Notes under the pieces: model-generated
Told to the model about the DNA's origin: nothing
Database searches by the model: none
The model's input: only the letters and a program-made list of their open reading frames with translations
IMG/VR virus record: IMGVR_UViG_3300038701_001628
Location: 1-45,088 of that record
From: a virus
DNA: 45,088 bases
Reading direction: 5' to 3' (one strand)
In this document: positions 10,950-30,100 of the stretch, one piece after another
Position numbering within the stretch: position 1 is the first letter of the stretch
Layout: each line of letters begins with the position of its first letter
Program-made: the position numbers and the translations under genes

Positions 10950-13487
10950 GTGGCACAGACAATTCAACGCAGTTTCACCGGTGGTGAGATTGCACCAAGT
11001 CTAAGATCACGTGCCGACCTGGTGAAATATTCCAGCGGTCTAGCTTTGTGTGAGAACATGTTTGTTAGATCCCAGGGTGGTGTGTATAGTCGACCAGGGA
11101 CCAAGTTCATTGGTGAGATAGGTCAACCCAACAGGCGCGCTAGATTGATTCCCTTCAGTTTCAACACTGAACAAACTTACGTTTTAGTCTTTGAACACCT
11201 TACAATGAGAGTCATCAAAGATGGTGGCTTCGTTCTCAATGGTGCTGGTCCTTCACTTTATGAAATAGCAACCCCTTATACTGAGTCTGAATTATCACGG
11301 CTGAGCTTCACACAAGATGCCGACGTGATGACAATCGTTCATCCGAATTATGATCCACGCGATCTTAGTCGTACAGCCGATGATGAATGGTCGCTTGATG
11401 TTATTGATTTCGATCCACCCATATCACCCCCATCTTTCACTTCTGATAGTGTCGCAAACATAACCGCGATCACACAGGCATCCCAAGCTCAAGTGACTAC
11501 AAGTGGAGCACATGGTCTGAGTAATGATGACGTGGTATTCATCGAATCTGTAGGGGGTATGACGGAGCTTAACGATCGTGGATTCGAGATATTCGTTGAC
11601 TCAACTACTACGTTCATCTTGAAAGGGGAAGACTCGACAGGTCATACTGCGTATACATCCGGTGGTACTGCCACATCCGGTGGACTTGTTGCATACGGTA
11701 GTGGTGCGGGGGATTTTGATAAGACATATAGTTACGTGATAACAGCGGTTAGTGCAGACGGTGAGTCGATAGCGTCGTCTTCTAAGAGTATCACTACTCC
11801 TTCATTGTCAGTTACAGCCGGTGTTAGAATCTCATGGGACGCGGTGAACAACGCTTCTTATTATCGCGTCTACAAAGACCCATCGAATGGTACAGGTATT
11901 TACGGTTGGATTGGTGACTCTGAAACAACTCAGTTTGATGATTACAACATTGCACCAATAACATCAGACGCACCCCCTGAAGATCGCGCACCATTTGAAT
12001 CATCAACTGCATCAATAACAGCAGTGACTAAAGCCAACCCTGCTGTGGTTACTGCTACAACTCACGGGTTCAGTACTGGACAAAATGTCACAATGTCTAG
12101 CGTAGGTGGTATGACTGAGCTGAACGGTAACACTTATGTGATAACTGTCATTGATGCTGATAGCTTCAGTTTAAATAATACAGATTCATCAGCGTACACC
12201 ACGTACACTTCTGGCGGTACTGCCGCTCGCACTAATAATAAACCAGCGACAGTTGCTTACTACCAGCAACGACGTGTATTCGCGAATACAAACGAAGAAC
12301 CCCAAACAGTGTTTACAACCCAGACGGGTGTTTACGACTCGCTCAGATCATCCATACCAGCGCGCGCAGACGATGCCGTAACATTTACAATCAAAGGCCG
12401 ACAGGTCAACGAGATCCGTCACGCAGTCGACGTGGATGGTCTTGTTCTTCTAACTTCAGGTGCCGAATGGCGAGTGACCGAGGGGCAGGACCAAGTACTA
12501 ACCCCTTCAACAGTGGGTGCACGCATTCAGTCTTACTACGGTGCGTCTTGGGTGCCACCACAGATTATTGGTGACACTGTTATATTCGTACAGGAGAAAG
12601 GTTCACGAGTTCGTGATATCAAGTACGAATTTGTTGATGATAAGTATTCTGGTAATGACTTATCAATCATGTCTGAACACTTATTTGAAGGTTACGAAAT
12701 TGAAGAAGTAGCTTTCAGTCAAGAACCGTACAGCATTGTGTGGATGGTTCGTAATGATGGTAAAGTTCTTGCGATGACATATCAGCGTGAACACCAGGTT
12801 TGGGGGTGGCACCAACACGACTTCGGTGGTGTGGTTGAGTCAGTTACTTCAGTTAGCGAGGGTCAACGTGACGCGGTGTATATGGTCGTTAAAAGAACCA
12901 TAAACGGGTCTGATGTTCGATATGTGGAACGAATGGAACAACGATACACTTCGGCACCTGAAGATGTCTGGTGTGTTGACTCGGGTCTTCAATATGACGG
13001 GTCTGCTGCTACAGTTATTTCAGGATTGGATCATTTGGAGGGAGAAGCTGTATCAGTTGTTGCTGATGGTAATGAGGTTAAGAATCTTACTGTTAGCAGT
13101 GGTGCAATAACTCTACCAAGAGCCGCGAGTAAGGTGACAGTAGGGTTGGCATACACACCTGCTGTTGAATTGCTTGATATTGACTTGTCATCTGCTAATG
13201 AAACACTTAAAGGTAAAGAGGTATCAGTGTCTCGTGTTATACTGGAAGTTGAGAAGTCTCGTGGGGGTTGGGTTGGTCCTAAGAAAGACAATGGTAGCAC
13301 TGGTACAATGTTGGAAATTAAGCCAAGATTTGATACTGATAACTATGATTCAATCGCATTGAAGACATTCAAACAAGAACTTTATATTGATCCTCAGTGG
13401 AGTAAGGGTGGCGGTATCCGCATTGAGCAGCGTACACCCTTTCCACTGGCGATCTTATCAGTGATACCAGAAGTCGATGTCAGTTAA
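10950..13487 (+). CDS. tail nozzle / tubular protein B-like (phage stabilisation protein family)
   Basis: GTG start. QRSFTGGEIAPSLRSRADLVKYSSGLALCENMFVRSQGGVYSRPGT motif, 845 aa, gp12 position. Contains an internal duplicated about 70-aa module flanking an Fn3-like segment. Confidence 0.55.
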   Translation: MAQTIQRSFTGGEIAPSLRSRADLVKYSSGLALCENMFVRSQGGVYSRPGTKFIGEIGQPNRRARLIPFSFNTEQTYVLVFEHLTMRVIKDGGFVLNGAGPSLYEIATPYTESELSRLSFTQDADVMTIVHPNYDPRDLSRTADDEWSLDVIDFDPPISPPSFTSDSVANITAITQASQAQVTTSGAHGLSNDDVVFIESVGGMTELNDRGFEIFVDSTTTFILKGEDSTGHTAYTSGGTATSGGLVAYGSGAGDFDKTYSYVITAVSADGESIASSSKSITTPSLSVTAGVRISWDAVNNASYYRVYKDPSNGTGIYGWIGDSETTQFDDYNIAPITSDAPPEDRAPFESSTASITAVTKANPAVVTATTHGFSTGQNVTMSSVGGMTELNGNTYVITVIDADSFSLNNTDSSAYTTYTSGGTAARTNNKPATVAYYQQRRVFANTNEEPQTVFTTQTGVYDSLRSSIPARADDAVTFTIKGRQVNEIRHAVDVDGLVLLTSGAEWRVTEGQDQVLTPSTVGARIQSYYGASWVPPQIIGDTVIFVQEKGSRVRDIKYEFVDDKYSGNDLSIMSEHLFEGYEIEEVAFSQEPYSIVWMVRNDGKVLAMTYQREHQVWGWHQHDFGGVVESVTSVSEGQRDAVYMVVKRTINGSDVRYVERMEQRYTSAPEDVWCVDSGLQYDGSAATVISGLDHLEGEAVSVVADGNEVKNLTVSSGAITLPRAASKVTVGLAYTPAVELLDIDLSSANETLKGKEVSVSRVILEVEKSRGGWVGPKKDNGSTGTMLEIKPRFDTDNYDSIALKTFKQELYIDPQWSKGGGIRIEQRTPFPLAILSVIPEVDVS

Positions 13488-13944
13488 ATTCGAGAAGCCA
13501 ACAGAAGACTCATTGATACACATCGGTGAGTACATGCGAGAAGCTGATCGTATTGAAGTCATGGCTTCTCATGGGATGGTGCCATTAGAAGCTGTGTTCA
13601 ACTCTGTTGACATATCAGATTTATCATCTGTTGCACTGTATAATGGAGTACCTTGTGCTGTGTTTGGCCTGGTGAAACGAGACTTACTGACAGGAACCGG
13701 GGTGCCCTGGTTACTTGGTACCGATGACATAGATTTATGTAAGAAAGATTTTATTATTCACACTCGCGAAGGTGTGAGAGAAATGTTGAATGTGTGTCCA
13801 CGATTAGAGAATCATGTTCACATTGAAAACAGGAAAAGTATACGATGGTTGAAAACAATGGGATTTAAATTTGATGAACCCGAACCTGTAGGAATACATG
13901 GTGAATTGTTTTCACGATTTTATTTGGAGTTGAACAATGTGTAA
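13477..13944 (+). CDS. GNAT-fold / T7 gp13-position virion assembly protein
   Basis: ENHVHIENRKSIRWLKTMGFKF resembles the GNAT N..si.wl...GF motif. Called on gene order. Confidence 0.4.
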   Translation: MSVKFEKPTEDSLIHIGEYMREADRIEVMASHGMVPLEAVFNSVDISDLSSVALYNGVPCAVFGLVKRDLLTGTGVPWLLGTDDIDLCKKDFIIHTREGVREMLNVCPRLENHVHIENRKSIRWLKTMGFKFDEPEPVGIHGELFSRFYLELNNV

Positions 13945-14461
13945 TCCTGCTGTAATTCCTTATGTAATGGCCGCAGTTGCTGCTTATGGTTCATATGAGC
14001 AAGGTAGACAGGCTAAGAAGACTTCTCGCTATAATGCTCGCGTCATGGAGAATGAAGCCATTCGTACTCGCAACAAGGGTACCGACGAAGAAAATCGACA
14101 TCGTGAGAAGGTTCAACAATTAATATCCCAGCAACGGGCAACCCTTGGTGCGAGCGGTGTTGATATTGCGAGTGGTTCACCATTACAGGCACAAACTGAT
14201 GCCGAGTTGCTGGGTGAGGTTGATTCATTGCGCATCCGTCAGAATTATTCAGACTCTGCACGAGCAATTGATGAGAAAGCAAAACTCACCATCGCCGAGG
14301 GTAACAGTGCGTATCGCAAAGGGGTTATCGGCGCAGTGACTGCAATTGGTGGAGCTGTCGCGGGTAATGTATCGAATAGCTGGTACACACCACAAAGCTC
14401 CGCTGTAACAACTACAACAACTGGGGCGCAAGCAAATGCTGCCTTTGGTAATATTGCTTAA
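13937..14461 (+). CDS. internal virion protein (gp14-position)
   Basis: N-terminal hydrophobic segment AVIPYVMAAVAAYG, followed by coiled-coil. Called on gene order. Confidence 0.5.
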   Translation: MCNPAVIPYVMAAVAAYGSYEQGRQAKKTSRYNARVMENEAIRTRNKGTDEENRHREKVQQLISQQRATLGASGVDIASGSPLQAQTDAELLGEVDSLRIRQNYSDSARAIDEKAKLTIAEGNSAYRKGVIGAVTAIGGAVAGNVSNSWYTPQSSAVTTTTTGAQANAAFGNIA

Positions 14462-14469
14462 GGTGATTT

Positions 14470-16062
14470 ATGCCCAAGATACCAACATACGACGGATTAC
14501 AAGTTGATCAGCAAATAGCATCACAACCGTTGGCTCGTGTCGACCCTGATCCAATAAACAGTCGGGCGATCAATCAGCTTGGTAACGAAGTTCTCAAGAT
14601 GCAACAGCGCATTGCTGAGACTGAAGCTGAAGAAGCAATTACCTCGTTTGAGCGAGAGAAGAATAAAATCTTCTTCGATCCAGACAGTGGTTATTTTAAC
14701 GCTCAAGGTCGCGATGCTTACGACCGTGCCCCCGAGGTCAACAAGAACCTTGACGCACTGAAACGCCAGTACTCTGAAAACCTCAAATCAGACACAGCTC
14801 GTCGAGCGTTCGACAGGGTTGCCACTCAACACCTCACCCGTGCAAATCAAGATGTAATGCGTCACGCTAGTAAGAACCTTAAGGCTTGGGAAGCGAGCAC
14901 AATCAATGCTCAAGTTGAGAACACCATTGAGAATGCATCACTGTATTGGAATGATGAAAAGCGACTCGGCGTACAGCGTGAGCTTGGCAGACAGTCTGTT
15001 ATGGAGAGTGCCAATATTGAAGGGTTAAGTCCTGAAGCAACTGCCGAACGCCTACAAACCTATGAGTCTTCATTTGCTGCTGCTGCTGTCACTGCTGCTG
15101 TACAGCAGGGTTCACAGCAAGGTCAGGAGACTTTCGATCGTTACAAGGATCGTCTCGAAGGTCCAGATGTGATCAAGATGCAGTCAGCGATCGAGCGTAA
15201 AGCTAAAGCTGAGAAGACCCAACTTGACTCGAATACTGCAGTTCTCGCAGCCGGTAAGCTGGTGGAACAATATGGTGATGCTGACAATGCGCGGTCATCC
15301 ATCATTGAAGAAGTGAACAAGATCGAAGATCCTGAACTGCGACAAAAAGCAATGAAGGAATCCATGTACCAATTTGAAGCCAAAATGAAGGCTGACTCTG
15401 AAGAACGTGCTGCAACGTTTGAGGCCGGGGAGAACTTCATCGTAGAGGGTGGTTCAGTAGAGCAATTCATTGCTCAGAACCCAGAACAATGGGAGAAGTT
15501 GACTCCGAAACAGAAGCGAGTATTGAACTCAGGTGCTTCTGTAAGTACTGATTATATAAAATTATCAGACTTATTAACCCTGCCGAAAGACAAGTTGGCA
15601 CAGGTTAATCCCACGGATCACTTCGATCACTTGAACAAAGCTGATCGAAGTAAGCTGATCAATGCAGTTAAGTCTGCTCGCCAAGGTGGTGTCGATCACC
15701 AAGTTGGTAGAACTCGAACTGCCGAGACATCTTCAGCGGTTGAACAGTTATTTGGTAAAAAGACCAAATGGGACAAGAAGGAGAAGGCGCAAGTCAATGA
15801 GTTCTATGCTATAGTAGACGATGAGGTACAGTTCCGCGAGAAGCAGAAGGGGTCACCCTTGACTTCCCAGGAATATACTGAAATGTTAAACAGCATGACT
15901 CGCAAGGTTGTCAAAGACCGGACATTCTGGTTTGACAAAGAGCAAGACATCACTGATATCCCCGCCGAAGATCTGGGTGTGATCAGTGATTACCTGCATC
16001 AAAATAGCATACCTGCGACTGCTGAGAATATCCTAAAAGCATACGAACAGGCTTCTCAATGA
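14470..16062 (+). CDS. internal virion/core protein (gp15-position)
   Basis: 530-aa helical protein with a 4-nt overlap with the giant downstream gene. Confidence 0.5.
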   Translation: MPKIPTYDGLQVDQQIASQPLARVDPDPINSRAINQLGNEVLKMQQRIAETEAEEAITSFEREKNKIFFDPDSGYFNAQGRDAYDRAPEVNKNLDALKRQYSENLKSDTARRAFDRVATQHLTRANQDVMRHASKNLKAWEASTINAQVENTIENASLYWNDEKRLGVQRELGRQSVMESANIEGLSPEATAERLQTYESSFAAAAVTAAVQQGSQQGQETFDRYKDRLEGPDVIKMQSAIERKAKAEKTQLDSNTAVLAAGKLVEQYGDADNARSSIIEEVNKIEDPELRQKAMKESMYQFEAKMKADSEERAATFEAGENFIVEGGSVEQFIAQNPEQWEKLTPKQKRVLNSGASVSTDYIKLSDLLTLPKDKLAQVNPTDHFDHLNKADRSKLINAVKSARQGGVDHQVGRTRTAETSSAVEQLFGKKTKWDKKEKAQVNEFYAIVDDEVQFREKQKGSPLTSQEYTEMLNSMTRKVVKDRTFWFDKEQDITDIPAEDLGVISDYLHQNSIPATAENILKAYEQASQ

Positions 16063-19000
16063 CCACACTGAATTTAGATAATATTGATCTTGGTGCATTC
16101 GGACCAACTGATGAGAATGAAAAAACTGTAGACCAAGTTGTTGATCAACAACGACAGCAACAACTTGGTGCCACATTGGGTGAAGCTATCAAGGTTAACC
16201 CAGATCAACAAGCCAAGATCAACAAGTTATCTAAAGAATCAGGTGTACCACCTGCTGCTGTAGAGTCTGACCCCACGTCCATTGAGACAAATCTTAAGTT
16301 AAAGAAGATCGACCTCAAGTCAATGACTCGCACCAACCCTGCTGTCAGTAAATTCTTGAACGACTTTGATCGTGCATCTGTGTCTCATGATGATATTGAT
16401 TCATTGAAGGCTTTAGAAGACGCGGTTGCCACTCTGCATCTACCCTCAAAACAGCAAGTTGCTGATAATTCTGAAGACAAGAATGGTTATCTGTCCAATG
16501 TAGGCCGAGGTGTCGGCGAGCGTGTGACCGAGCTGCTTGGGTCATTATATGGGTTTGCTGCCCAGGGTGGTGAGTACCTTGACGAAAAGTTCCCCGTAGG
16601 TGGGTTTGTATTTGAAGACTCACTACTTCCGAGATATGCCGGACCTGAAGAATGGAAGCAGTTGCAAGAAAAAGGAATGGACGACCTTGTTGCTCGGACT
16701 GGTAAGATCCTCAAAGACACCAACTTTGGTTATATACCTCAAGCCACATGGGAGACTACCAAGGAAGCCTACGCATCTGGCGACGTACTTGATGCTGCAG
16801 GTGAGACTTTAGCATTCGGGTTCGAACAAGGCACTCACTCACTTGCTGATATGGCTGCTACCATTTATGCACTTCCAACTTACATTTTGGCCAGGTCACA
16901 AGAGATAGGCGAAAATCGTGCCAAGAATAAAGGTTTAGAAAAAGCAACAATCGAAGAGACGATCGAAGCCGCACCGTTCGCTGTGGGTTCCGCGATATTG
17001 GAACGCATATTGCCTGCTAAAGTTTTTGGTGGTATGAGTAAGAAAGAAGTCAGTCAGGTTGGTAAGGAAGTCCTTAGCCAGTCTGCTAATAAATTGAAAG
17101 AGGTCATGAAGGCCGCTGGTAGTGGTCTGATCATTGAATCCACCACCGAGGCGATCCAAGAGGGTCTGATTGAGTACATCGGTGAGCGTTATGGTACTGA
17201 TGCGCCAATCTTTCTAAGAGAAGCGTTGGATCGTGCTGCAGGGGGTGCTGTCGGTGGCGGTGTAGCTGGTGGTATGTTGAGTGGTACTTCAGCAACAATC
17301 AATGTTGTAGTTAACACACAGACCTCTCAGAAGATGGATGCTGCTGCGCAGGAAGCCCAGCGTCAGGCGATTCAGGCTGACCAAGAGCAACGCACCATCG
17401 ATAACCTTAACGACCTGGCACAAGGCTCAAAGCTGCGTGAGCGTGACCCCGAGTCATTCAAGCAGTTTGTAGAACAGAGCGACGGTGAGAATAACACTCA
17501 CGTATTTATCGACGGTGTGCAAGCTAAACTTTATCTAGCCGACAAAGATGTACAGTCGGACCCAGTGCTACAGATGATCGCTGAGAAAGTAAACGAAGCC
17601 GCCAGTCTGGGCAACGAGGTCGCCATACCTGTTGCAGATTTTGCGACAACTGTAGCAGGTACTCCGCACTTTGAAGCACTTCGTGAGTTCATGACATTAA
17701 GCGGTAAAACCACTGCTCCATTTAGACAAGAACAAGCACAACAAGAAACCCGCGAGTACGTTTCGAAACTGATGGATGACGCCAAAGAGAATGTGTCTCA
17801 GTACGTTGAGTCACAGGAGATCTTTGAATCTGTTCGTCAACAGCTCGTTGATACCGGGATGGTCAATGCTCAAAATGCAGGAGTGATGGCTCAAGTCGTA
17901 CCCGCATGGGCAACAGTGTACGCACAGAAGAATGGTATCTCTGTGCAAGAAGCGTACCAGAAATCAGGTTTAGTTATTGAAGGACCACAAACTGGTCGAG
18001 CTGCAGCACTGCAGGCTGAAGAAGTTACACCCCCAGTAATTCCAGAAGAACAGATTCAAGAGCGTATCGTCACACGTGAGCCTGTCACAGATCGTCGGCA
18101 ATCAGACACAAGTAACGACGTTTCGGAACAGCGCCAGGGTGATCGTCGTTCGGATGACGCGCGTCGTGAGCGCATTGCGAACATGACTCCTGAAGAACAA
18201 TACAAGGCGATCTACACCAATGAATTGACTGGTTTAAACAATCGCCGCGCATTCGAGGAAGATTTACCAAACTCACCCGTTGTAGTTAGCATCGACGTTG
18301 ACTCACTCAAAACAGTGAACGACAACTTAGGTCATGATTCAGGCGATCAGTTACTCAAGGTCGCTGGTAAAGCGATCTACGAAGCCACAGGCGGTAAGGC
18401 TTATCACATCAGTGGCGATGAATTCTATGTACTTGGTGACAATCAAGCTGAGATAGAAAGCAACTTAGAAGCTGCTCGACAAGCATTAAGCAACTCTGTT
18501 GTTGCTTCTGAACGCGGTGCACTAACTGGTGTTGATTTCACTTACGGTGCTGCAGATAACAAAGCCGATGCAGACCATGCGATGGAGCAGGCTAAGGGTG
18601 ATCGTGAGGCGCGTGGTGAGCGAGTACCACGTGGTGAGTTGCCGCGAGGTATGGTGTTGAATGAGAAATTGAATCAAGTTGCTAACGAGAGTGTTGAAGA
18701 ATTCAGTAACAGAATTGCAAAAGAACAAGGTCTTGAGGATTTTTTCTTAATAGAGAAACGCAACGGTGACATTGAGCTTGCTAATTTTGTAGTACCAAAA
18801 ACCGATCAAAAGTCAGGTAAAGGTACTGCTACAATGCAGGCTCTGATTCAATTCGCCGACCTTAACAATAAGCGAATTGTTCTTGATCCTGCATTGAAAG
18901 ATGACAGAAAAGGAACAACAAGTAGAGGTCGTTTAGTTAAATTCTATAAACGATTTGGATTTGTCGAGAATAAGGGTCGCAATAAAGACTTTGAAATCAG

Positions 19001-22000
19001 TGGGTCAATGTATCGTGAAGCGTCAGAGACTTTTGCTCAATCGGTTGATCAGACTCAGACTGAAGCATTTAGGAAGTGGTCTGAAGGTGGTGAAGTTGTT
19101 GAAGATTATGATGTTAACGATTATGAGTTCAAACAAGACACACCGGTTGTGTTGAAAGTCTACCACGGGACTACTCACAAGTTCAGCGTATTTGAAGCAC
19201 TTCGTGGAAATCTTGAAGGCCAGTTTGGAGCTGTAAATTACTTCACAAGTAGCGAGTATGATGCTGAACAAAACCACGCTGGTGAAGGTCCAGATCTAAC
19301 TAATCGGATTGACCGTCGTGCAGAACAGTTGACAGATGATATTCAAGAGATTATTGATGAATCAGGATTAGACGCGGCAATTGAACAATTTATACCAGGT
19401 GTAGATCAATTCATAGAAGATGCTTCTGACATTGCGCAAGTTCTTGCAAAGAAAGAATTGTCAGGTGGTGAAGAACTCACGATGGAGTTGTTCGTCAAAG
19501 TTAAAAACCCGTTTGTAATCGGTGAGAATGCTGAGTGGTTAGAATTTGTCGACAATGACTCAATTCGATCACAAGCTGAAGAGAAAGTTGCTGAAGATAA
19601 TGATGTGGACGTTGATGAGGTTGTCAATAACTTTGAAGAATATGAAGACCAAATCTATGATGCGATTTATGAAATTGAAGCCGAAACCCCAAATCAACTG
19701 ATTGAAGCAATTCAGGAAATATCTGATCGTCACGGAATTGATCCTAGTAATCTGCTCGCTCAAGTTTATGAATTAGGTTCAGAAGCAAAACCTGAAGTCA
19801 TTGAAGACCTGCTACGAACAAGTGAAGATTACCAATATGTAGAAGGTGATCAAGGTGAGTTAATTGGTTCACAGTTGATAGCTGAAGTAATTGAAGAGAT
19901 GGGGTTTGATTCAATCATTCTTCGAAATGCTGAAGACCGATTCAGTGCAATGGACATCCCTCAATCAACTGCACATGTTCATATTTTTGACAGCGGTAAA
20001 ACTAATATCAAAGCTGTTAATAATCAGGGTACTTTTGATCCTGAGAATCCAGACATCTATAAACAAAAAGAACGCGGATACTACGAACCAAGCCGCTCGT
20101 TAATCCGTCTTACTGAGTCTGCGGATCTTAGTACATTCCTTCATGAGTTTGCTCACTTCATGTATGAAATGGAGTTGAACTCTACTGACTCCCTTGATGG
20201 TAAGAACACTGTTGCAAGTATTCACAAGTGGTTTAAGCGTAACTCTAAAGATGTTGCGAAAGAAGCTAATTCTTACTTGGGTAGATCGGGTGCATTAGAG
20301 CAACCTGCTTTCCACGGCACTGCGCATCAGTTTGACAAGTTCAGTCTCGAAGCTATCAACACTGGTGAAGGTAACCAAACTTACGGGTGGGGGTTGTACT
20401 TCGCAAGTAAAAAATCAATTGCTGATTTTTACAAAGACAAGTTCCAAGGTCGCACTGTAGAAGTTGAAGTTCCTGAAAATAGTGAACTCTTAGACTATAA
20501 CGCACCGTTGTCATCTCAACCTGGGATGATGGAAAAACTCAACATCAAAGAAAAGTCTGTTTACCTTGACACCGAGCTGACTCCATCAATGTCAGGTCAG
20601 GAAGTTTATGACCGTCTTGCACGCGGTAGAACGAATCGCGGTGTTAACACCAAACAAGAAGCTTCGGAATATTTGTCATCACTCGGTATACCCGGTCTAA
20701 AATATCGTGACGCAAGTTCTGAAGGTGACAACTTTGTCATCTGGGATGAAGATCGTGTAAGTATCACTGACATTAATGAACAAGAACATCAAGCAGAAAG
20801 ACTCAATCAAGAAGGCGATCCAGACTTCCGTGAACCTCCGAAAGAAATAACTGAAGAAGATATTCTCGTATACCTCGATGTTGGTACCACAAACTTCGCT
20901 GACAAAGATGCTGCTATTCGTCGTGCTACTCATGAGCAGTTTGCTCGCGGATTTGAAACGTACTTAATGGAAGGTAAAGCACCTTCTGCTGAACTGCGTA
21001 ATATTTTCCGCACGTTCGCACGATGGTTAACTCAGATCTACAAATCAGTACGCGGTAATTTACGGGTGAACCTCGACGAAGAAATGCGTGAAGTTTTCAA
21101 TCGTCTACTTGCAACTGAAGAACAGATTGCAGCCGCTGAAGCTCGTGCCAAGTATGCACCAATGTTTAGTAATGCTGCGATGGCGGGAATGACTGAGGAA
21201 GAGTTCAGCAAATACACCGAGCAGCAAGAAAAAACCAAAGACAAAGAAACCGAAACACTACGTGACAAGTTGATTGGTGAAATCACTCGTCAAACTAAAT
21301 CATGGTGGAAGGAAGAGAAACAAGATCTTATTGATGAACAGCTTGACGTTCTCAGTGTTGAGCCTGTTTACCGTGCGACTGAGGGTCTGCGCAACGGTGA
21401 GTTCAAACTTGATCACGCCACTGTGAAAGAGATGGTCGGATTCGAGCGAACTGATAAGCGCGGTATGACTTCAACTCGTGTTCCAGATCAACTACGCGGT
21501 ATGACTGTCAAAGGTGCTAAGGGTGTTCACCCTGATGAAGCCGCTGCATTCTTTGGTTTCAATTCAGGTAGCGAGATGTTGTCTGAAATTATTGATGCTG
21601 TACCCGTCGGTGACAAAGCTGCTGCACAAGCTGAAGAGATTATGCTTGAGCGTCATGGTGACATCATGCACGATGGTACTATTGAGCAGCAAGCCGACGA
21701 AGCATTGCAGAATGAAGAACGCGGTAAGTTGATCCTTCAGGAACTTAAATCACTTCGCAAGGGTACCAATGCGCCAGCGTTAGATCGTGCCACCATCAAA
21801 GCAATGACTGAAGAGAACATTGCTAAACTGAATTACCGTTCCATATTCCCTCAGAAGTACCGTAAAGCTGAGATTCGTGCAGCCCAAGAAGCCGCTGCTG
21901 CATTAGCGAAAGGTGACAAAGAAGCTGCAGCAATGGCGAAGGCTCGTCAAGTTCTAAACTACTATTTGGGAATGGCTGCTACTGATGCACGCAATGACAC

Positions 22001-24443
22001 CTTGAAGATTGTTGATCGTATGTCTCGATACAACAAGAAGAAGGTGCGCGAAGAAATTCAAAAAGCTGAGAATGGTTACTGGGAGCAACTTGTAAAAATT
22101 CTCAACCGGTTCGAATTCCGCAAGTCTGCCACACTGAAACAAGTCGACGAGGTTAACGAAGATATCAACTCGTGGATGAAGGCTCGCATGGATGATGATG
22201 GTGACGCATTGGTGCTATCTCCTGCAGTTCTCAATGAGACATTTGTCACCCATTGGAAAAATGTTCCATACTCTGATCTTCAGGGTATCAATGACTCTGT
22301 GAAGAACATCGAACACGTTGCGCGGTACTCTAACAAACTAACCCGCATGGGTGAAGAGATTGAATTTCGCAAGTTGGTTGACCGGTGGGTTAACCACATG
22401 GAAGAAGCTCAGCCTTCACGTTTCCAGCCACAACGCACCAGTGTAGTCGAGGGTCGCAACTGGGGTCGTTGGGCAATGGCTCAGATGACCAAGATTCCAT
22501 ACATGGCATCGTGGCTTGACGGGGGTGAGCGTGTCGGATTGAGTCATGACATCCTCATCCAACCTATGACCGACGCTGCTGACGCTGAGATCCAGCTATG
22601 GAAGTCAGTAGGCAGTAAGGTCATGGAAGCCATAGAAGGGCGTGACAAGGCTGACATTAAGCGTCACAACCGTAAGATCTTCATCCCTGAGCTAAAGGAC
22701 GCCACTAATGACGGTAACCTCATGGGTCACCAGGTTCTTGCTGTTGCATTGAACACTGGTAACCAGGGCAACTTGCGCAAGATGTTGCTCGGTGAAGGTT
22801 GGGCTAACCCCGAGAACGATGCCGAGATCACTCTGCAAAATCCCAAACTGCAAGCTGTGCTGAAGAACATGACCAAATCTGACTGGGAACTGGTGCAGTT
22901 AATCTGGGATCAGATGGAAGAGTTATACCCGCAGTTAGCAGAAGTACATCGTCGCACTACTGGTTTAGTGCCACCGAAGGTTGACGCAACCCCCGTGCAG
23001 ACTGAGTTCGGCACATTCAAGGGTGGTTACTACCCGGTGAAATATGACTCTAACCGCAGCCATCAGGCTGAGATGAATGAGGATAAGTTGAATGCGCAGA
23101 CTGAGTCGATGTTCAGTACGATCGGGAGTATCCAGGCGTCGGTTAATGCATCAGCTACGAACGAAAGAACCAAGTACTATGCACCGATCAGACTCAGTCT
23201 GGACGTGGTGCCAGGACACTTCCAAGAAACCATTCATTACATCACACACCATGACGCAGTGCGAGAAGTCAACAAGCTGATTCGTAACAAGTCTGTGGCT
23301 GAGACAATTAAAGCAAAACTCGGACCAGAAGAGTACGCTCAACTTAAACCTTGGTTGAACGATCTAGCCAAAGATGGTAAAGAAGCACCTACCAAGATGT
23401 TCTGGGATGACATGCTGGGTCGTCTACGTTTTGGTCTGACACTTGGTACTATGGGTTTCCGTGTCACCACGGGTCTTATCCAGATATCTGGTCTATCGAA
23501 CACTGTGGCTGAAGTCGGCGCTAAGCCTGTGTTACAGGCTGCTCGCAGCATCCTCGGTAGTACAACCAACATGAGGGAAGCTTGGGACTTTGCTAACTCT
23601 AATTCCAAGGTGTTGAACCACAGAACGCAGACTATGGACCGTGAGATCAAGAACGCCATGAATCGCATTGCTGGGAAGCGTGGTATGTTGGCAGCAGTCC
23701 AAGAGGCGTCAATGAAGCACATTGCATATATCCAGACCTACATGGTGGATCTGCCAAGCTGGTACGCTGCGTACATCAAGAAGCTTGATGAAACGGGAGA
23801 TGAGCAAAAAGCGTACCAATATGCTGATTGGGTCGTGGAAAATGTTCAGGGTTCAGGGATGACGAAAGACATGGCACGGATAATGCGTGGTCAGTCAGAA
23901 AGTGGTAGAATGTTCACTATGTTCATGACTTTCTTCAGTTCGTTGTGGAATATGGAACGAGATCTTGTGAAAGGTGCCAGATCCAAGCGTTATTCTATTA
24001 CAACCACTGCAGCTAAGTTGGCATTCTTATTCAGTATCCCAGTTCTATTTGAGATGTTGATGAGAGGTGAGGTTGACGACGATGAGCCAGAAGAGACAAT
24101 GCAGAAGATACTGACCAAGACAGCGACATTCCCTGTACAGTCGGTACCATTCATAAGAGACATTGTCAATGGTGCTACGGGAGAATTCGGTTATAATATA
24201 TCACCGATCGCATCATTGCTTGAAACCGGTACCAGGTCAATACCTGCTCTAGTTGCCGCCCCGTTGACTGACGATGAGATAACTAAGTCTCAAGTCAAAG
24301 GTGCGACCAAGGTTGGTGGGGCTGCACTCGGCATCCCTGGTATCAATCAAGCCTGGGCCACTGGTGAGCATTTGTACGAAGTAATTGAAGATGGTGAAGA
24401 TTTCACTACACAAGAATTCTTGTTTGGTCCAAAGAGAGATTAA
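16059..24443 (+). CDS. giant internal virion / ejection protein (gp16-position), polyvalent multi-enzyme protein
   Basis: Uninterrupted 2794-aa ORF between a gp15-like gene and the tailspike. The C-terminal region has hydrophobic segments (LAFLFSIPVLFEMLM). The central region holds GGDEF, GNAT, ART-like and HExxH motifs (listed separately). Confidence 0.85.
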   Translation: MTTLNLDNIDLGAFGPTDENEKTVDQVVDQQRQQQLGATLGEAIKVNPDQQAKINKLSKESGVPPAAVESDPTSIETNLKLKKIDLKSMTRTNPAVSKFLNDFDRASVSHDDIDSLKALEDAVATLHLPSKQQVADNSEDKNGYLSNVGRGVGERVTELLGSLYGFAAQGGEYLDEKFPVGGFVFEDSLLPRYAGPEEWKQLQEKGMDDLVARTGKILKDTNFGYIPQATWETTKEAYASGDVLDAAGETLAFGFEQGTHSLADMAATIYALPTYILARSQEIGENRAKNKGLEKATIEETIEAAPFAVGSAILERILPAKVFGGMSKKEVSQVGKEVLSQSANKLKEVMKAAGSGLIIESTTEAIQEGLIEYIGERYGTDAPIFLREALDRAAGGAVGGGVAGGMLSGTSATINVVVNTQTSQKMDAAAQEAQRQAIQADQEQRTIDNLNDLAQGSKLRERDPESFKQFVEQSDGENNTHVFIDGVQAKLYLADKDVQSDPVLQMIAEKVNEAASLGNEVAIPVADFATTVAGTPHFEALREFMTLSGKTTAPFRQEQAQQETREYVSKLMDDAKENVSQYVESQEIFESVRQQLVDTGMVNAQNAGVMAQVVPAWATVYAQKNGISVQEAYQKSGLVIEGPQTGRAAALQAEEVTPPVIPEEQIQERIVTREPVTDRRQSDTSNDVSEQRQGDRRSDDARRERIANMTPEEQYKAIYTNELTGLNNRRAFEEDLPNSPVVVSIDVDSLKTVNDNLGHDSGDQLLKVAGKAIYEATGGKAYHISGDEFYVLGDNQAEIESNLEAARQALSNSVVASERGALTGVDFTYGAADNKADADHAMEQAKGDREARGERVPRGELPRGMVLNEKLNQVANESVEEFSNRIAKEQGLEDFFLIEKRNGDIELANFVVPKTDQKSGKGTATMQALIQFADLNNKRIVLDPALKDDRKGTTSRGRLVKFYKRFGFVENKGRNKDFEISGSMYREASETFAQSVDQTQTEAFRKWSEGGEVVEDYDVNDYEFKQDTPVVLKVYHGTTHKFSVFEALRGNLEGQFGAVNYFTSSEYDAEQNHAGEGPDLTNRIDRRAEQLTDDIQEIIDESGLDAAIEQFIPGVDQFIEDASDIAQVLAKKELSGGEELTMELFVKVKNPFVIGENAEWLEFVDNDSIRSQAEEKVAEDNDVDVDEVVNNFEEYEDQIYDAIYEIEAETPNQLIEAIQEISDRHGIDPSNLLAQVYELGSEAKPEVIEDLLRTSEDYQYVEGDQGELIGSQLIAEVIEEMGFDSIILRNAEDRFSAMDIPQSTAHVHIFDSGKTNIKAVNNQGTFDPENPDIYKQKERGYYEPSRSLIRLTESADLSTFLHEFAHFMYEMELNSTDSLDGKNTVASIHKWFKRNSKDVAKEANSYLGRSGALEQPAFHGTAHQFDKFSLEAINTGEGNQTYGWGLYFASKKSIADFYKDKFQGRTVEVEVPENSELLDYNAPLSSQPGMMEKLNIKEKSVYLDTELTPSMSGQEVYDRLARGRTNRGVNTKQEASEYLSSLGIPGLKYRDASSEGDNFVIWDEDRVSITDINEQEHQAERLNQEGDPDFREPPKEITEEDILVYLDVGTTNFADKDAAIRRATHEQFARGFETYLMEGKAPSAELRNIFRTFARWLTQIYKSVRGNLRVNLDEEMREVFNRLLATEEQIAAAEARAKYAPMFSNAAMAGMTEEEFSKYTEQQEKTKDKETETLRDKLIGEITRQTKSWWKEEKQDLIDEQLDVLSVEPVYRATEGLRNGEFKLDHATVKEMVGFERTDKRGMTSTRVPDQLRGMTVKGAKGVHPDEAAAFFGFNSGSEMLSEIIDAVPVGDKAAAQAEEIMLERHGDIMHDGTIEQQADEALQNEERGKLILQELKSLRKGTNAPALDRATIKAMTEENIAKLNYRSIFPQKYRKAEIRAAQEAAAALAKGDKEAAAMAKARQVLNYYLGMAATDARNDTLKIVDRMSRYNKKKVREEIQKAENGYWEQLVKILNRFEFRKSATLKQVDEVNEDINSWMKARMDDDGDALVLSPAVLNETFVTHWKNVPYSDLQGINDSVKNIEHVARYSNKLTRMGEEIEFRKLVDRWVNHMEEAQPSRFQPQRTSVVEGRNWGRWAMAQMTKIPYMASWLDGGERVGLSHDILIQPMTDAADAEIQLWKSVGSKVMEAIEGRDKADIKRHNRKIFIPELKDATNDGNLMGHQVLAVALNTGNQGNLRKMLLGEGWANPENDAEITLQNPKLQAVLKNMTKSDWELVQLIWDQMEELYPQLAEVHRRTTGLVPPKVDATPVQTEFGTFKGGYYPVKYDSNRSHQAEMNEDKLNAQTESMFSTIGSIQASVNASATNERTKYYAPIRLSLDVVPGHFQETIHYITHHDAVREVNKLIRNKSVAETIKAKLGPEEYAQLKPWLNDLAKDGKEAPTKMFWDDMLGRLRFGLTLGTMGFRVTTGLIQISGLSNTVAEVGAKPVLQAARSILGSTTNMREAWDFANSNSKVLNHRTQTMDREIKNAMNRIAGKRGMLAAVQEASMKHIAYIQTYMVDLPSWYAAYIKKLDETGDEQKAYQYADWVVENVQGSGMTKDMARIMRGQSESGRMFTMFMTFFSSLWNMERDLVKGARSKRYSITTTAAKLAFLFSIPVLFEMLMRGEVDDDEPEETMQKILTKTATFPVQSVPFIRDIVNGATGEFGYNISPIASLLETGTRSIPALVAAPLTDDEITKSQVKGATKVGGAALGIPGINQAWATGEHLYEVIEDGEDFTTQEFLFGPKRD
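18201..18608 (+). other. GGDEF (diguanylate-cyclase fold) domain, aa 715-850 of the giant protein
   Basis: ELTGLNNRRAFEEDL...VVVSIDVDSLKTVNDNLGHDSGDQLLK...YHISGDEFYVLG...ADHAMEQAKGDRE. Signature SGDEF at 18411-18425. Confidence 0.75.
18741..18977 (+). other. GNAT N-acetyltransferase-like domain, aa about 895-973
   Basis: Motif A Q-x-x-G-x-G in DQKSGKGTATMQALIQFA, followed by RLVKFYKRFGFVENKG. Confidence 0.55.
19146..20026 (+). other. ART-PolyVal-like module 1
   Basis: VYHGTTHKFSVFE...GAVNYFTSSEYDA...VKVKNPFVIGE...MGFDSIILRN...AHVHIFDSGKTNIKAV fits the remembered HGT / YFT / NP / G.D.I / vF...IK pattern of polyvalent-protein ADP-ribosyltransferase domains. Confidence 0.45.
20142..20156 (+). 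other. HExxH zincin metallopeptidase motif (HEFAH)
   Basis: STFLHEFAHFMYEMEL, aa 1362-1366. Confidence 0.5.
20310..20783 (+). other. ART-PolyVal-like module 2
   Basis: FHGTAHQFDKFS...YGWGLYFASKKSIADFY...LGIPGLKYRD...GDNFVIWDEDRVSITDI. Paralogous to module 1. Confidence 0.45.
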
Positions 24444-24462: not shown

Positions 24463-26781
24463 ATGACAGTTAATACAACAAACATCACTTCCGGGCCTTA
24501 TTCCGGTAATGGTATAACTACTGGGTTCTCTTACACTTTTCGTGCAGAGTTGAAGACTCAACTTCTTGTTTATGTCAAAGATGCTAGTAATGTAATAACC
24601 ACAAAAACAGTGGACACTGATTATACAGTTTCAGGTTTGGGGGATGACGATGGTGGTGTGGTTACATTCTTAACCGCACCCGTCACTGGAGAGACGGTTT
24701 ATATTCGTTCCAATTACCAGGCCACACAAGACACAGATTTTGATAGTCAAGGTGGTTTTTTTCCAGATGTACACGAAGCAGCAATTGATAAGTTAACATT
24801 TCAGATACAACAATTACAAGACCAAGTGAACAGATCGTTAAGAATAAATATCAACGATGACACAGGTAGTCTGGATCCATTAGCAGAGATAACTGCTAAT
24901 TCATTTTTAAGAGCCAATGCAACAGCAGATGGTTATGATCATTTCACATTACCCTCAGTCGGTGTTACTGCCGAAGTACCTCTCGCCTCATATGATGATT
25001 TTAGAAATGGTACTGCTAGTTTTGATATCGATGATTATTCTGATGGTCAGATAATTTGGTTTACAAATAATTTAATTTTCGGAGCCTTTGTTTTAAGAAC
25101 AGGGGCGTCTCCGGCTGACAATGGTGGAACAGTAATCCGATCTACAGTAGACACCAATAGATACGTGGAACGAGTATTTAGTGGTGCGGCATCGGTAAAA
25201 TGGTTTGGTGCTACAGGGGATGGTGTTACTGATGACAGTGCTGCTTGTCAGGCAGCTTTGGATAATCATCAAGCTGTGTTGTTTGATGAGCCAGATACTG
25301 CATACTTGATTGAGAATGAACTCATCCCCCCTACCAATCGATTGATCATTGGTCGTCGTGGGAAAATAGAAGCAGGCGCTGGGTTACAAATAGCTGCAGC
25401 TCAAGCTTTTGTGTTCAGACTTAATAATAACGGAATCACATTTAAAGACATGATCATTAATGTCGATTATTCTGTGTTTCCCAGAAACGCCAGTGACGAA
25501 GCAAAGGTTGGAGCCATATACGGCACAGGGCGAAATAATATAACATTGGAGAATTGTACAATCACCGGTGGTGCCAACTTCTTCCAAGCGTCCGGCTTCA
25601 TTGCTACTGGCTTAATTGAGATTAGAAACTCGGCGTTCATTAGACTTGAGAACTGTTTTGTCCGTGGAGATTATAGCGCAGCTTGGAGCGGATCAGCAGC
25701 AGGTTCAGAAATCTGCAAAATATTAACATGCACAGATGTTTCAATTATCGGTGGTGTTTATCGTCAGAGCTTTTATTCATGTATTGCAGTTGGTGTAGGG
25801 GGTGAGCGTGTAATTATTGATGGGGTTCAAGCTGATACATGTATTGGTTCTGTTATTAGTTTTAACGCTCAGGATGCTACGCTTGCGAACTCTGTTATAG
25901 GTGGGTCACGTGATGAAGGTGGTGTTGCGATGGGTCACCCATCTTCAGCAAGTGCGAGATGTAAGGTTCTTGGTAATACCATTTACGACTGCGGTCGAAG
26001 CGGTGTATCAGTAGCCTATCCTGACGCAATCATTGCTAACAATAACATAAGAGACTGTGAAACAGCTTCTCCTTCTGATACATTTGCTGCGGCCATCGCT
26101 ATCGGTGATTCCGCTAATCCTACCACATATAGAAATCGAGCAAGTGTCAGTGGTAATGTAATCCGTGGTTGTTATAACGGTATTGTAGTCAGTGATTCTT
26201 CTTTAGCTGGTGAAGATGGTTCTGATTATGCAATCAATGGTAATGTTGTAAGTAATTGTACGAATGCGGGTATTTATTCATCCGCGCCAAATGTTTCTAT
26301 AGTTGGTAATGTGACTCGATCGAATGATAGAAATATCCAAATTGAAACTACTAGATCAACTAACAACATAGTAACAGCGAACACTGTGGTTTCCGGTGTG
26401 ACTTATGGAATATTGGCTAGTTCACCAGGGTCTGGTACGAGAATATGGGGCAACACTGACGTTAATAATACGGCGAACAGTATTGCACATGAAGAATTAA
26501 CAATTGCCACAGGGGAGATTACAATAACTTCTGATCATCACTTCACTGTAGATACAGAGTCAGATGCTGCAACTGACGATCTGGTTACGATTAACGGCGG
26601 AATAGATGGGCAAGTTGTTACACTATCACCCGATAACGATACAAGAACAGTGGTTGTCAAAGATGGTTCTAACCTTCAACTGAACGGTGATTTTACAATG
26701 GATTCTAATGTGGACATGATTACTCTTAAGAAGATTGGCAGTAATTGGCGAGAAGTTTCCCGATCTGATGTATCTTCATAG
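24463..26781 (+). CDS. tailspike / tail fibre with pectate-lyase-type right-handed beta-helix (probable polysaccharide depolymerase)
   Basis: N-terminal fibre anchor YSGNGITTGFSYTF..DYTV. VKWFGATGDGVTDDSAACQAALD (Pectate_lyase_3 signature). Repeated NxxIxxC/G beta-helix rungs (NCTITGG, NNNIRDC, SGNVIRGC, NGNVVSNC). Confidence 0.8.
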   Translation: MTVNTTNITSGPYSGNGITTGFSYTFRAELKTQLLVYVKDASNVITTKTVDTDYTVSGLGDDDGGVVTFLTAPVTGETVYIRSNYQATQDTDFDSQGGFFPDVHEAAIDKLTFQIQQLQDQVNRSLRININDDTGSLDPLAEITANSFLRANATADGYDHFTLPSVGVTAEVPLASYDDFRNGTASFDIDDYSDGQIIWFTNNLIFGAFVLRTGASPADNGGTVIRSTVDTNRYVERVFSGAASVKWFGATGDGVTDDSAACQAALDNHQAVLFDEPDTAYLIENELIPPTNRLIIGRRGKIEAGAGLQIAAAQAFVFRLNNNGITFKDMIINVDYSVFPRNASDEAKVGAIYGTGRNNITLENCTITGGANFFQASGFIATGLIEIRNSAFIRLENCFVRGDYSAAWSGSAAGSEICKILTCTDVSIIGGVYRQSFYSCIAVGVGGERVIIDGVQADTCIGSVISFNAQDATLANSVIGGSRDEGGVAMGHPSSASARCKVLGNTIYDCGRSGVSVAYPDAIIANNNIRDCETASPSDTFAAAIAIGDSANPTTYRNRASVSGNVIRGCYNGIVVSDSSLAGEDGSDYAINGNVVSNCTNAGIYSSAPNVSIVGNVTRSNDRNIQIETTRSTNNIVTANTVVSGVTYGILASSPGSGTRIWGNTDVNNTANSIAHEELTIATGEITITSDHHFTVDTESDAATDDLVTINGGIDGQVVTLSPDNDTRTVVVKDGSNLQLNGDFTMDSNVDMITLKKIGSNWREVSRSDVSS

Positions 26782-29637: not shown

Positions 29638-30100
29638 AATGCTCCTTTGCTGCTTTATTATAAGTTAAAGAAGCTTCTTCAGGTGTGTCAAAGCGACCGA
29701 GATATGTTTGCTTTCCGTTTATCTTTATTTGAGCGTGCCATTTTCCTGATTTTTTATTTAAAGAAACGCCACGATAACCTGACGTGTTGTGTTTATGGAT
29801 GCCCGAGTTACCCGCATTCTGGGTACAGTTAGCGCCTCTTAAATTCAACCACCGGTTGTCTGTTCTATCCCTGTTTATATGATCCACATATTTAGGAATG
29901 TAACCTTCGACATATAACCAAGCAAGCCGATGTAGTCTGTAAATTTTCTGATTTATGATTGTATGCAAATAACCTTTACCGTCAACAGTACCGATAATTT
30001 GCCCCGGTAAAGACCGTGAACTTCTCCAAACTTTATTTTTAAAAAGCCCAGAATCAGGGTCATAATGTAGAATAGATTTTAAGTATATCTGAGTAATCAT
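29609..30100 (-). CDS. HNH-AP2 homing endonuclease
   Basis: HRLAWLYVEGYIPKYVDHINRDRTDNRWLNLR (HNH_3) plus GYRGVSLNKKSGKWHAQIKINGKQTYLGRFDTPEEA (AP2 DNA-binding domain). Confidence 0.85.
   Translation of the reverse strand: MITQIYLKSILHYDPDSGLFKNKVWRSSRSLPGQIIGTVDGKGYLHTIINQKIYRLHRLAWLYVEGYIPKYVDHINRDRTDNRWLNLRGANCTQNAGNSGIHKHNTSGYRGVSLNKKSGKWHAQIKINGKQTYLGRFDTPEEASLTYNKAAKEHFGAFATINP

Follow-up and report, generated by a model that had tools for sequence, protein, structure and literature searches.

GGDEF domains have been described before as cargo of polyvalent proteins by Iyer, Burroughs, Anand, de Souza and Aravind (J Bacteriol 199:e00245-17, PMC5512222), who, in the passages devoted to them, call such fusions ‘not very widespread’, give as an example WP_004096050.1 from an Acetonema longum prophage, predict that polyvalent proteins are injected with the DNA and propose that they use or disturb cyclic-nucleotide signalling (Iyer et al., 2017). 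The annotation ‘diguanylate cyclase’ is also already in use for small stand-alone relatives of the domain described here in YuA-like and Bordetella phages; for one of these, LK3, lysogeny goes with increased biofilm, though only as a correlation (PMC8471281). Here, we analyse a GGDEF domain encoded at positions 18201-18608 of the IMG/VR virus record IMGVR_UViG_3300038701_001628, the whole 45,088-nucleotide stretch of which (positions 1 to 45,088) is termed the window below. The concept of a GGDEF-polyvalent fusion, with the same kind of function, was published as a computational prediction in 2017 and the present protein is a further member; what is new here is the definition of a clade, its abundance, a covariation of His/Ser within its active site, its extensions and measurements of selection. 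No biochemical or infection-stage study of any GGDEF polyvalent protein was found in the literature searched.

We favour, with a confidence slightly above even, the interpretation that this is a genuine, probably catalytically competent GGDEF domain, carried as interchangeable cargo in a polyvalent protein that would fill the largest internal core/ejection slot of the virion, and that it makes cyclic di-GMP (c-di-GMP). Most likely, the diguanylate cyclase is active and either enters the cell with the phage DNA or is synthesised alongside it, and both conservation and selection point to catalytic competence. Like the fusions in the GGDEF passages of Iyer et al. (2017), the protein joins GGDEF to ADP-ribosyltransferase (ART), zincin-like peptidase and LPD domains and is encoded among virion genes; unlike them, the carrier is the core protein of a BPP-1-like podophage at the position of T7 gp16 rather than a protein of the methylase-helicase type.

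The domain region corresponds to residues 715-850 of a 2,794-residue open reading frame (ORF) at 16059..24443 on the plus strand, in frame and free of stops; the reverse strand opposite is closed by many stops, and antisense ORFs at 18085..18276 and 18522..18728 were dropped as genes because they span only 63-68 residues inside a strongly constrained coding region. A match to PF00990 with 54.7 bits and E = 1.4e-14 (gathering score 23.8), together with one to TIGR00254 with 44.7 bits (cutoff 37.4), identifies the region as a GGDEF domain. The initial annotation had called the domain near-complete, and fairly so: 125 residues cover positions 5-155 of the 161 in the PF00990 profile, the domain being ~26 residues shorter than the Pfam model chiefly through a shortened helix alpha1, and an AlphaFold model made from an alignment of 34 members of the clade defined below contains every canonical GGDEF secondary-structure element (mean predicted local distance difference test score, pLDDT, 92.3; predicted template modelling score, pTM, 0.84). 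The GGDEF fold consists of a five-stranded core sheet with flanking helices and is related to the nucleotide-cyclase palm. A phmmer search of PDB sequences returned 41 chains, every one with a GGDEF domain and almost all bearing the name diguanylate cyclase; other folds were not among them. Foldseek against the PDB returned 79 structures at E ≤ 0.001, the best 50 of them all GGDEF domains with E down to 1.6e-9, headed by cyclases solved with an N-terminal coiled-coil stalk (SiaD 7e6g, DgcB 6ttr and GCN4-WspR 3i5c).

A chance or compositional resemblance, or membership of another palm family such as the reverse transcriptases, Cas10/mCpol or the adenylyl cyclases, can be regarded as excluded. 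Quite apart from the Pfam and Foldseek scores, reverse transcriptases and polymerases in the viral structure library matched the domain model only at E > 0.07, no Cas10, mCpol or CD-NTase structure is among the Foldseek PDB matches listed, the anti-phage defence library PADLOC yielded zero matches to the domain, and no point in favour of such a resemblance was found. Kinship with the defence-system cyclases of the PADLOC library was rejected for want of any match there. Residues 715-850 form a bona fide GGDEF domain, and on Pfam, PDB sequences, AlphaFold and Foldseek alike the earlier call of a true GGDEF cyclase domain, as opposed to another palm fold, stands. The parts of the domain discussed next are:

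18222..18596, plus strand: GGDEF core, residues 722-846, matched by PF00990, TIGR00254 and Foldseek.
18141..18653, plus strand: full conserved unit of the clade, residues 695-865, with Arg-rich N-terminal helices, GGDEF core and C-terminal tail, delimited by HMMER matches over query residues 3-184 (40-64% identity), conservation and AlphaFold.
18294..18349, plus strand: metal- and guanine-binding segment D746-V-D748-S-L-K751-T-V-N754-D755-N-L-G-H-D-S-G-D763, from conservation and alignment to DosC.
18405..18425, plus strand: active-site motif HxSGDEF, H783-I-S785-G-D787-E788-F789, from clade conservation.

The motifs that the initial annotation had read from the translation are all in place: LTGLxNRR as LTGLNNRR at residues 723-730, the metal-binding DVD as D746-V-D748, VND and GHDSGD as V753-N754-D755 and G758-H-D-S-G-D763, the SGDEF signature with His for the usual Arg as H783-I-S785-G-D-E-F789, and the C-terminal AD.A...AK as A838-D...A-K846. 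The PDB sequence search aligns the metal- and guanine-binding segment to DosC as follows: IDVDKFKEINDTWGHNTGD. Conservation was scored over 159 domain copies drawn from clusters at ≤50% identity, and all catalytic and substrate-binding positions proved 91-100% conserved: D746 (100%), D748 (98%), K751 (92%), N754 (100%), D755 (97%), G762 (100%) and D763 (92%) in and around the binding segment; G786 (100%), D787 (99%), E788 (99%) and F789 (93%) in the signature; and K846 (99%), R849 (91%) and R855 (95%) towards the C-terminus, with the Arg of the ‘NRR’ motif, R730, retained here and in 91% of the clade. On the basis of the DosC alignment, we take D746 and D748 to be the counterparts of PleD D327 and D329, K751 of K332, N754 of N335 and D763 of D344; H783 corresponds to PleD R366, S785-G-D-E-F789 to G368-G-E-E-F372, K846 to K442, and either R849 or R855 to R446. 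Metal-binding Asp, the acidic pair of the motif, guanine-binding Asn and Asp, and phosphate-binding Lys and Arg are thus all present.

Two motif positions, 783 and 785 (18405-18413), are coupled: 123 of the copies combine His with Ser, 22 combine Arg with Gly and only ~2 are mixed, and Arg/Gly is the state of 70 of the 72 ordinary cyclases sampled. As the two pairs are mutually exclusive, they indicate a co-adapted active site, not decay. Comparison of the window with its closest relative, a metagenomic one (L008, IMGVR_UViG_3300038315_001272) gave, for the domain, a non-synonymous substitution rate (dN) of 0.11 and a synonymous rate (dS) of ~1.2, a dN/dS of ~0.1 that indicates strong purifying selection. 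Elsewhere in the giant protein, dN was 0.105 in the C-terminal core, 0.23 in the N-terminal region and 0.38 over the ART and zincin-like modules, so that constraint on the domain equals that on the essential C-terminal core and is tighter than in the neighbouring modules. Together, the covariation and the low dN/dS argue for selection on the active site itself.

These data bear on the possibility of a domain without catalysis, whose role would be structural, dimerising or nucleotide-sensing and would concern capsid-core assembly or the host nucleotide state. The signature does have Ser for its first glycine and His for the Arg before it, there are known cases of degenerate GGDEF domains with a non-catalytic role as binders of GTP or c-di-GMP (background in PMC3974145), and absence of the module from the closest cultured relatives, which implies that it is not needed for core assembly, has been listed on the same side. 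We nevertheless judge this alternative unlikely, given that the metal, general-base and phosphate residues are conserved at 91-100%, as a structural or sensing role would not demand, that selection appears to act on the active site, and that stand-alone clade proteins of 150 residues in YuA-like phages have no scaffold role to play.

Precedents bear out the earlier remark that active SGDEF and AGDEF variants are known: SGDEF cyclases with activity on record include ECA3270, and the rise in c-di-GMP that MbaA brings about in vivo depends on its SGDEF (PMC3974145, PMC8079147). Mutagenesis has further shown that an Asp facing the Watson-Crick edge of the base gives GTP specificity, whereas Ser or Thr gives promiscuous, cGAMP-forming Hypr enzymes; the Glu at the fourth motif position is a general base acting across the dimer (PMC6456294). 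The present domain carries D763 where Hypr enzymes carry Ser or Thr (GacA S348), and R730 is, by our own inference, the equivalent of the cross-dimer Arg in that study. With Asp at position 763 in 92% of the clade, the SGDEF precedents, the general-base Glu and the conserved residues, GTP would most likely be the substrate and c-di-GMP the product.

We attach a low probability, just below that given to a silent domain, to an active nucleotidyl cyclase with a different product: cyclic GMP-AMP (cGAMP), cyclic di-AMP (c-di-AMP), a linear pppGpG-type dinucleotide or another signal, which could act as a decoy or competitor against cyclic-nucleotide immunity such as the cyclic-oligonucleotide-based anti-phage signalling system (CBASS), or could activate an effector of benefit to the phage. 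Such a product is suggested by the departure of the clade from ordinary cyclases at the two coupled positions (HxS versus RxG), by its own N- and C-terminal extensions, by the existence of altered-product GGDEF enzymes such as Hypr GGDEF (PMC6456294) and by the interference with host nucleotide signalling proposed in the relevant passages of Iyer et al. (2017) (PMC5512222). Moreover, Asn, Thr or Ser replaces the Asp equivalent to D763 in 13 of the 159 copies, as in the GHDQGT of P0015 (residues ~327-522), and those members with Ser or Thr at this position may make other dinucleotides. For the domain in the window, the Watson-Crick-face Asp that drove GTP-only specificity in mutagenesis (PMC6456294) speaks against a changed product, as do N754 (100%) and R730 (91%), both canonical guanine-favouring residues, and the lack of similarity to CD-NTase or Cas10-type cyclases.

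The initial annotation also held that the inhibitory RxxD I-site is missing and called the cyclase unregulated. The site is indeed missing; however, the residues cited for this, GKAY, are three residues off register, the true equivalents, 9-6 residues before the first motif residue, being A776-T-G-G779. An RxxD occurs within 14 residues upstream of the motif in 3 of the 159 clade copies, compared with 32 of the 72 ordinary cyclases. ‘Unregulated’ is too strong a word for a cyclase that must dimerise and is embedded in a 2,794-residue protein, and it is unwarranted because a conserved N-terminal extension contains RRxD, an RxxD-type motif distant from the canonical I-site position. The extensions on either side of the core are:

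18141..18197, plus strand: N-terminal extension DRRSDDARRERIANMTPEE, residues 695-713, from clade conservation and AlphaFold helices.
18594..18653, plus strand: C-terminal segment K846-G-D-R849-E...G853-E-R855-V-P-R858-G-E-L-P862-R-G864, residues 846-865, from conservation and AlphaFold.

In the giant-protein versions, the N-terminal extension follows the consensus (D/E)RRxDxxRRKR(V/I)xxM(T/S)PEE, with R696 conserved at 84%, R697 at 88%, D699 at 66%, R703 at 92%, M709 at 86% and E713 at 81%, and the AlphaFold model, of fair to high confidence over both extensions, places helices at model residues 9-20 and 24-32. These helices may form a stalk or dimerisation element, an idea that derives from the stalks borne by the best structural matches; alternatively, the Arg-rich helix could be a relocated regulatory site or a DNA-contacting linker. 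The C-terminal tail, RGExPxG, follows the phosphate-binding Lys/Arg, is specific to the clade and is absent from canonical GGDEF domains. It forms part of a clade pattern K..RE..G.R..RGE.P.G, in which G853 (97%), R858 (92%), G859 (94%) and P862 (92%) stand out, and is modelled at a pLDDT of ~92. A role for the tail as a linker or protease site was considered and dropped because it is kept in stand-alone 150-residue proteins and is a high-confidence part of the domain model.

Set beside PleD, WspR, DgcZ, DosC, SiaD and DgcB, the phage domain shares the fold, the metal Asp, the guanine-binding Asn/Asp, the Asp-Glu of the motif and the phosphate-binding Lys/Arg; it differs in lacking a sensory or receiver domain and the RxxD site, and in having SGDEF, His at position -2, a short alpha1 and the additional tail. 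With Pectobacterium ECA3270 and with MbaA and VCA0965 of V. cholerae it shares the replacement of the first signature glycine, and for these c-di-GMP synthesis is documented; unlike it, they are bacterial and sensor-linked, VCA0965 keeps RxxD, and the effect of Ser is context dependent. That the HxSGDEF clade represents a cyclase lineage specific to mobile elements, with unusual behaviour and physical injection along with the genome, is a possible though doubtful extension of our interpretation; such behaviour could consist of self-dimerisation through the Arg-rich stalk, regulation at the relocated RRxD site or a shifted product spectrum.

The carrier and its other modules are:

16059..24443, plus strand: giant ORF, 2,794 residues, a polyvalent protein that takes the slot of the largest internal core/ejection protein (T7 gp16 position; homologue of Bbp10 of BPP-1-like podophages).
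16188..16433, plus strand: LPD22, residues 44-125, PF18834 at 54.5-56.9 bits against a cutoff of 28.6.
18762..18968, plus strand: GNAT-like acetyltransferase module, residues ~902-970, a weak call from Acetyltransf_7 at 17.9 bits (below cutoff) and phrog_10691.
19152..19271, plus strand: first ART-PolyVal, residues 1032-1071, the N-terminal part of the match, PF18760 at 36.7 bits against 31.2.
20073..20279, plus strand: zincin-like HEFAH module, residues 1339-1407, with HEFAHF in the translation, kept in all relatives.
20310..20465, plus strand: second ART-PolyVal, residues 1418-1469, PF18760 at 28 bits for the segment alone.
20841..24440, plus strand: C-terminal core, residues 1595-2794, common to all BPP-1-like podophages.

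By its composition, the giant ORF is a polyvalent protein in the sense in which the term is used in the GGDEF passages of Iyer et al. (2017), an assignment that relies on LPD22, GGDEF and two ART-PolyVal domains above or near their cutoffs, on the GNAT-like and zincin-like modules, and on location among virion genes. LPD22, a marker domain of polyvalent proteins, is present in all four cultured relatives, the Vibrio phages MZH0603, 1.021.A, PS25B.1 and 1.185.O. For the GNAT-like module, phrog_10691 matches residues 870-1003 (E = 1.8e-35), and the homologous segment in phage 1.185.O likewise gives sub-cutoff matches to Pfam GNAT families; PF18760 scores 40.5 bits on the whole giant protein, in three stretches. 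The zincin-like segment, 62-70% identical in the four cultured relatives, had no significant match in Pfam. The 1,200-residue C-terminal core, matched by phrog_9880 over residues 1614-2777 (E = 4e-293), is 60-72% identical in the four Vibrio phages and 26-32% identical (tblastn) to Bbp10 of Bordetella phage BPP-1, with the same 26-32% found in counterparts from Pseudomonas, Xanthomonas, Caulobacter, cyanobacterial and marine podophages. An identical giant protein is encoded on Logan contig SRR15330770_246.

Judged by gene content and relatives, the source phage is a marine Vibrio-type, BPP-1-like podophage of T7 architecture, with Vibrio as the host of its closest relatives in culture. Read from PHROG and Pfam matches, the genes run from the small and large terminase through portal, protease/scaffold, major capsid and tail tube A and B to two small internal virion proteins, a 530-residue protein, the giant ORF and a tail spike; helicase, DNA polymerase, exonuclease and primase genes lie on the other strand. 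The genes that flank the giant ORF are:

13477..16062, plus strand: three internal virion protein genes (155, 174 and 530 residues, the last with a muralytic-like N-terminal domain), from PHROG and Pfam.
24463..26781, plus strand: tail fibre/tail spike gene, directly downstream and closing the virion module, from tail-fibre/tail-spike PHROGs, with Beta_helix and NosD on record.

The two small upstream proteins are matched by phrog_308 and phrog_418 (‘internal virion protein’), the 174-residue product has PF24072 T7_gp14 on record, and phrog_10475 and phrog_1044 cover the N-terminus of the 530-residue protein. With gp14-like and gp15-like genes ahead of it and the tail fibre gene behind, the giant ORF occupies a T7 gp16-type position; synteny and profile matches agree with the initial annotation, which had placed the domain inside a virion protein, in that the giant protein containing it maps to the internal-core/ejection-protein slot of a T7-like virion module. 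From the same position, synteny and profile matches, the giant protein is probably packed in the virion. As to the 530-residue protein (14470-16062, plus strand), ‘endolysin’ PHROGs match its first ~260 residues only and it has no Pfam match; it is probably a muralytic internal core protein, to judge from these matches, and its stop codon overlaps the start codon of the giant ORF as ATGA at 16059-16062.

The module behaves as mobile cargo. In the phage collection searched, it is absent from the gp16-position protein of every phage in culture. The four cultured relatives share the N-terminal region (residues 1-656), the zincin-like module and the C-terminal core within giant proteins of 1,902-2,514 residues (1,902-2,794 across close relatives), and comparison with the loci L003-L006 and L008 delimits a cargo cassette at 18027-20840 (residues ~657-1594), in which the GGDEF, the GNAT-like and the two ART-PolyVal modules vary. 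Metagenomic relatives carry GGDEF at the same place, directly after the conserved N-terminal region. L008, 84% identical both in the domain and in the C-terminal core, has the first ART-PolyVal and the zincin-like module and lacks the GNAT-like module and the second ART-PolyVal; six further proteins (P0006, P0008, P0009, P0011, P0014 and P0021) have GGDEF at residues ~590-850, followed by differing cargo.

An exhaustive HMMER search of 1.84 billion cluster representatives gave 1,249 matches at E ≤ 1e-10, 83 of them at ≤ 1e-30; the best 150 span nearly the whole 187-residue query at 33-64% identity, and 123 of these 150 belong to proteins of at least 1,000 residues. It took this search to reveal the homologues in giant proteins, a word-indexed protein search having returned just five weak bacterial matches with the single domain and only short proteins with the profile. 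Scored with a clade profile, members reach 109 bits or more and ordinary bacterial cyclases do not exceed 81, and by this measure the domain belongs to a distinct clade. Clade proteins are mostly 1,000-5,000 residues long; 14 contain a BPP-1-type C-terminal core, and other carriers have, in a sample, LPD1, LPD5, LPD38, LPD39, an Eco57I-type methylase with SNF2 helicase, or InPase, representing other polyvalent classes. In IMG/VR, 99 viral contigs encode a relative, within an ORF of at least 1,000 residues at 63 of the 70 loci parsed (median 2,348). The GGDEF passages of Iyer et al. (2017) make no mention of the HxSGDEF covariation, the two extensions or the loss of the I-site, features of a clade that here runs to ~1,250 representatives.

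All relatives that could be placed lie in phage genomes or viral contigs, and tblastn against 72,556 plasmids found no clade member, only ordinary GGDEF proteins at 73-77 bits, so that on present evidence the clade is phage-borne, not plasmid-borne. With megablast, the giant gene found no match among 50,697 phage records; relatives are therefore visible at the protein level only. Stand-alone versions of 150-300 residues also exist. Among them are the proteins of YuA-like Pseudomonas phages (YuA gp44) and of Bordetella Vojvodinavirus (CN1, CN2, LK3, FP1 and MW2; APL99257 in CN2), which belong to the same clade with 36-39% identity over residues ~704-863, tail included; for the CN1 protein, the match in predicted structure has a template modelling (TM) score of 0.86. 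Unlike the giant protein, these are single-domain siphophage proteins of ~150 residues, encoded in the early/replication region and not as virion proteins, without the RRxD part of the extension. Tandem GGDEF copies, found in 8 of the 150 homologues (P0012, P0015, P0016, P0018, P0019, P0020, P0042 and P0081), fit an enzyme that needs dimerisation or two half-sites; in three of them (P0016, P0018 and P0019, 478-544 residues) the two GGDEF copies are the sole matched domains, and these proteins may be built-in pseudo-dimers.

A zincin/SprT-like module often follows GGDEF (P0006, P0007 and P0008), and an HExxH-type motif lies within 250 residues downstream in 21 of the 150 giant proteins; in Bordetella phage CN2 (L001, 5995-7334), an SprT-like gene lies two genes downstream of the one for the stand-alone GGDEF protein. 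A functional pairing of GGDEF with zincin/SprT-like modules is possible.

An active enzyme need not be delivered: whole or as a processed fragment, the giant protein might instead raise c-di-GMP late in infection, before lysis, with the GGDEF module perhaps outside the mature virion. Lying in the late structural operon, the gene would lead to accumulation of protein in the cytoplasm before packaging, the zincin-like module of the same protein could process it, processing before and after packaging is discussed by Iyer et al. (2017), and the early/replication location of the YuA-like stand-alone genes implies that the activity is useful when expressed from the genome. This too strikes us as improbable: for 123 of 150 representatives the module is part of a protein of 1,000 residues or more, ORFs at the IMG/VR loci are of the same size, and the giant proteins sampled carry known polyvalent-protein domains, a pattern that is hard to explain unless co-delivery matters. 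Nor was a cleavage site identified.

Under our favoured interpretation of an injected diguanylate cyclase, the giant protein would be made late and, as synteny suggests, would join the gp14-like and gp15-like proteins in the capsid core. At infection, it would leave through the tail, the C-terminal core building or anchoring a conduit across the envelope, and by analogy with T7, P1 Dar and T4 Alt the N-terminal cargo would reach the cytoplasm. GGDEF modules of neighbouring copies would pair, possibly through the conserved N-terminal helices, each binding one GTP: the base through N754 and D763, Mg2+ through D746 and D787, and the phosphates through K846 with R849 or R855. E788 would serve as general base across the dimer in the formation of c-di-GMP and, without an RxxD I-site, the usual product inhibition would be absent and local c-di-GMP would rise fast. 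The host would be pushed into a low-motility, high-matrix state, with speculative benefits in blocking superinfection by way of pilus or flagellum or in perturbing nucleotide-based immunity. As to timing, it would be equally possible for the enzyme to act late in the infected cell, before packaging.

Several points weigh against this scenario. No enzymology for any clade member, or for any phage or polyvalent GGDEF, was found in the literature searched, and a Ser at the first motif position abolished activity in VCA0965 (an A-to-S mutant; PMC3974145); the residue two before the motif is His783 and not the usual Arg. The four closest cultured relatives have no GGDEF module, which makes it dispensable. 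Virion membership is here a positional argument, no virion proteomics for Bbp10 having been found in the literature. In Pfam and PDB sequence searches, the C-terminal core resembled neither T7 gp16 nor any solved structure to a detectable degree, and the conserved N-terminal region gave no match, beyond LPD22, that would speak to kinship with gp16; the protein is thus a ‘gp16-position’ protein by position only, not a member of the gp16 family. Membrane insertion is favoured by only one strongly hydrophobic segment, at residues 2646-2672 near the C-terminus in a hydropathy scan. A folded, dimeric domain would have to arise from a protein threaded through the tail channel, and the cargo might end up on either side of the inner membrane.

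In Vibrio, Pseudomonas and other hosts, c-di-GMP governs motility and pili, the production of matrix and many of the receptors used by phages. A feedback-insensitive cyclase delivered with the DNA could, if delivery does take place, alter the c-di-GMP state of the host before phage gene expression: the second-messenger state might be rewritten within seconds of adsorption, ahead of phage transcription, and competing phages might be shut out or nucleotide-based immunity disturbed. An injected cyclase of this type would constitute the first example of a second-messenger synthase brought in by the virion. The enzyme logic resembles that of T4 Alt (an ADP-ribosyltransferase), P1 DarB (a methylase-helicase) and the N4 virion RNA polymerase, capsid-packed enzymes that act before phage gene expression; these differ in their activities, and their packaging and injection have been shown by experiment, whereas here both are deduced from genes. 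The question is directly testable because the clade is abundant, its unit of ~170 residues is strongly conserved and it occurs stand-alone in cultivable Pseudomonas and Bordetella phages. The locus offers a candidate for a first study of a virion-borne second-messenger synthase, along with a natural series of phages with and without the module.

Ten other ORFs of the window, scanned with Pfam, contained no EAL, HD-GYP, PilZ or other c-di-GMP partner. Within the replication module, beside the helicase gene, positions 29609-30100 on the minus strand encode an endonuclease of the HNH type (HNH_3 at 48 bits) that also has an AP2 DNA-binding domain (39.7 bits) and, from this domain pair, is probably a homing endonuclease.

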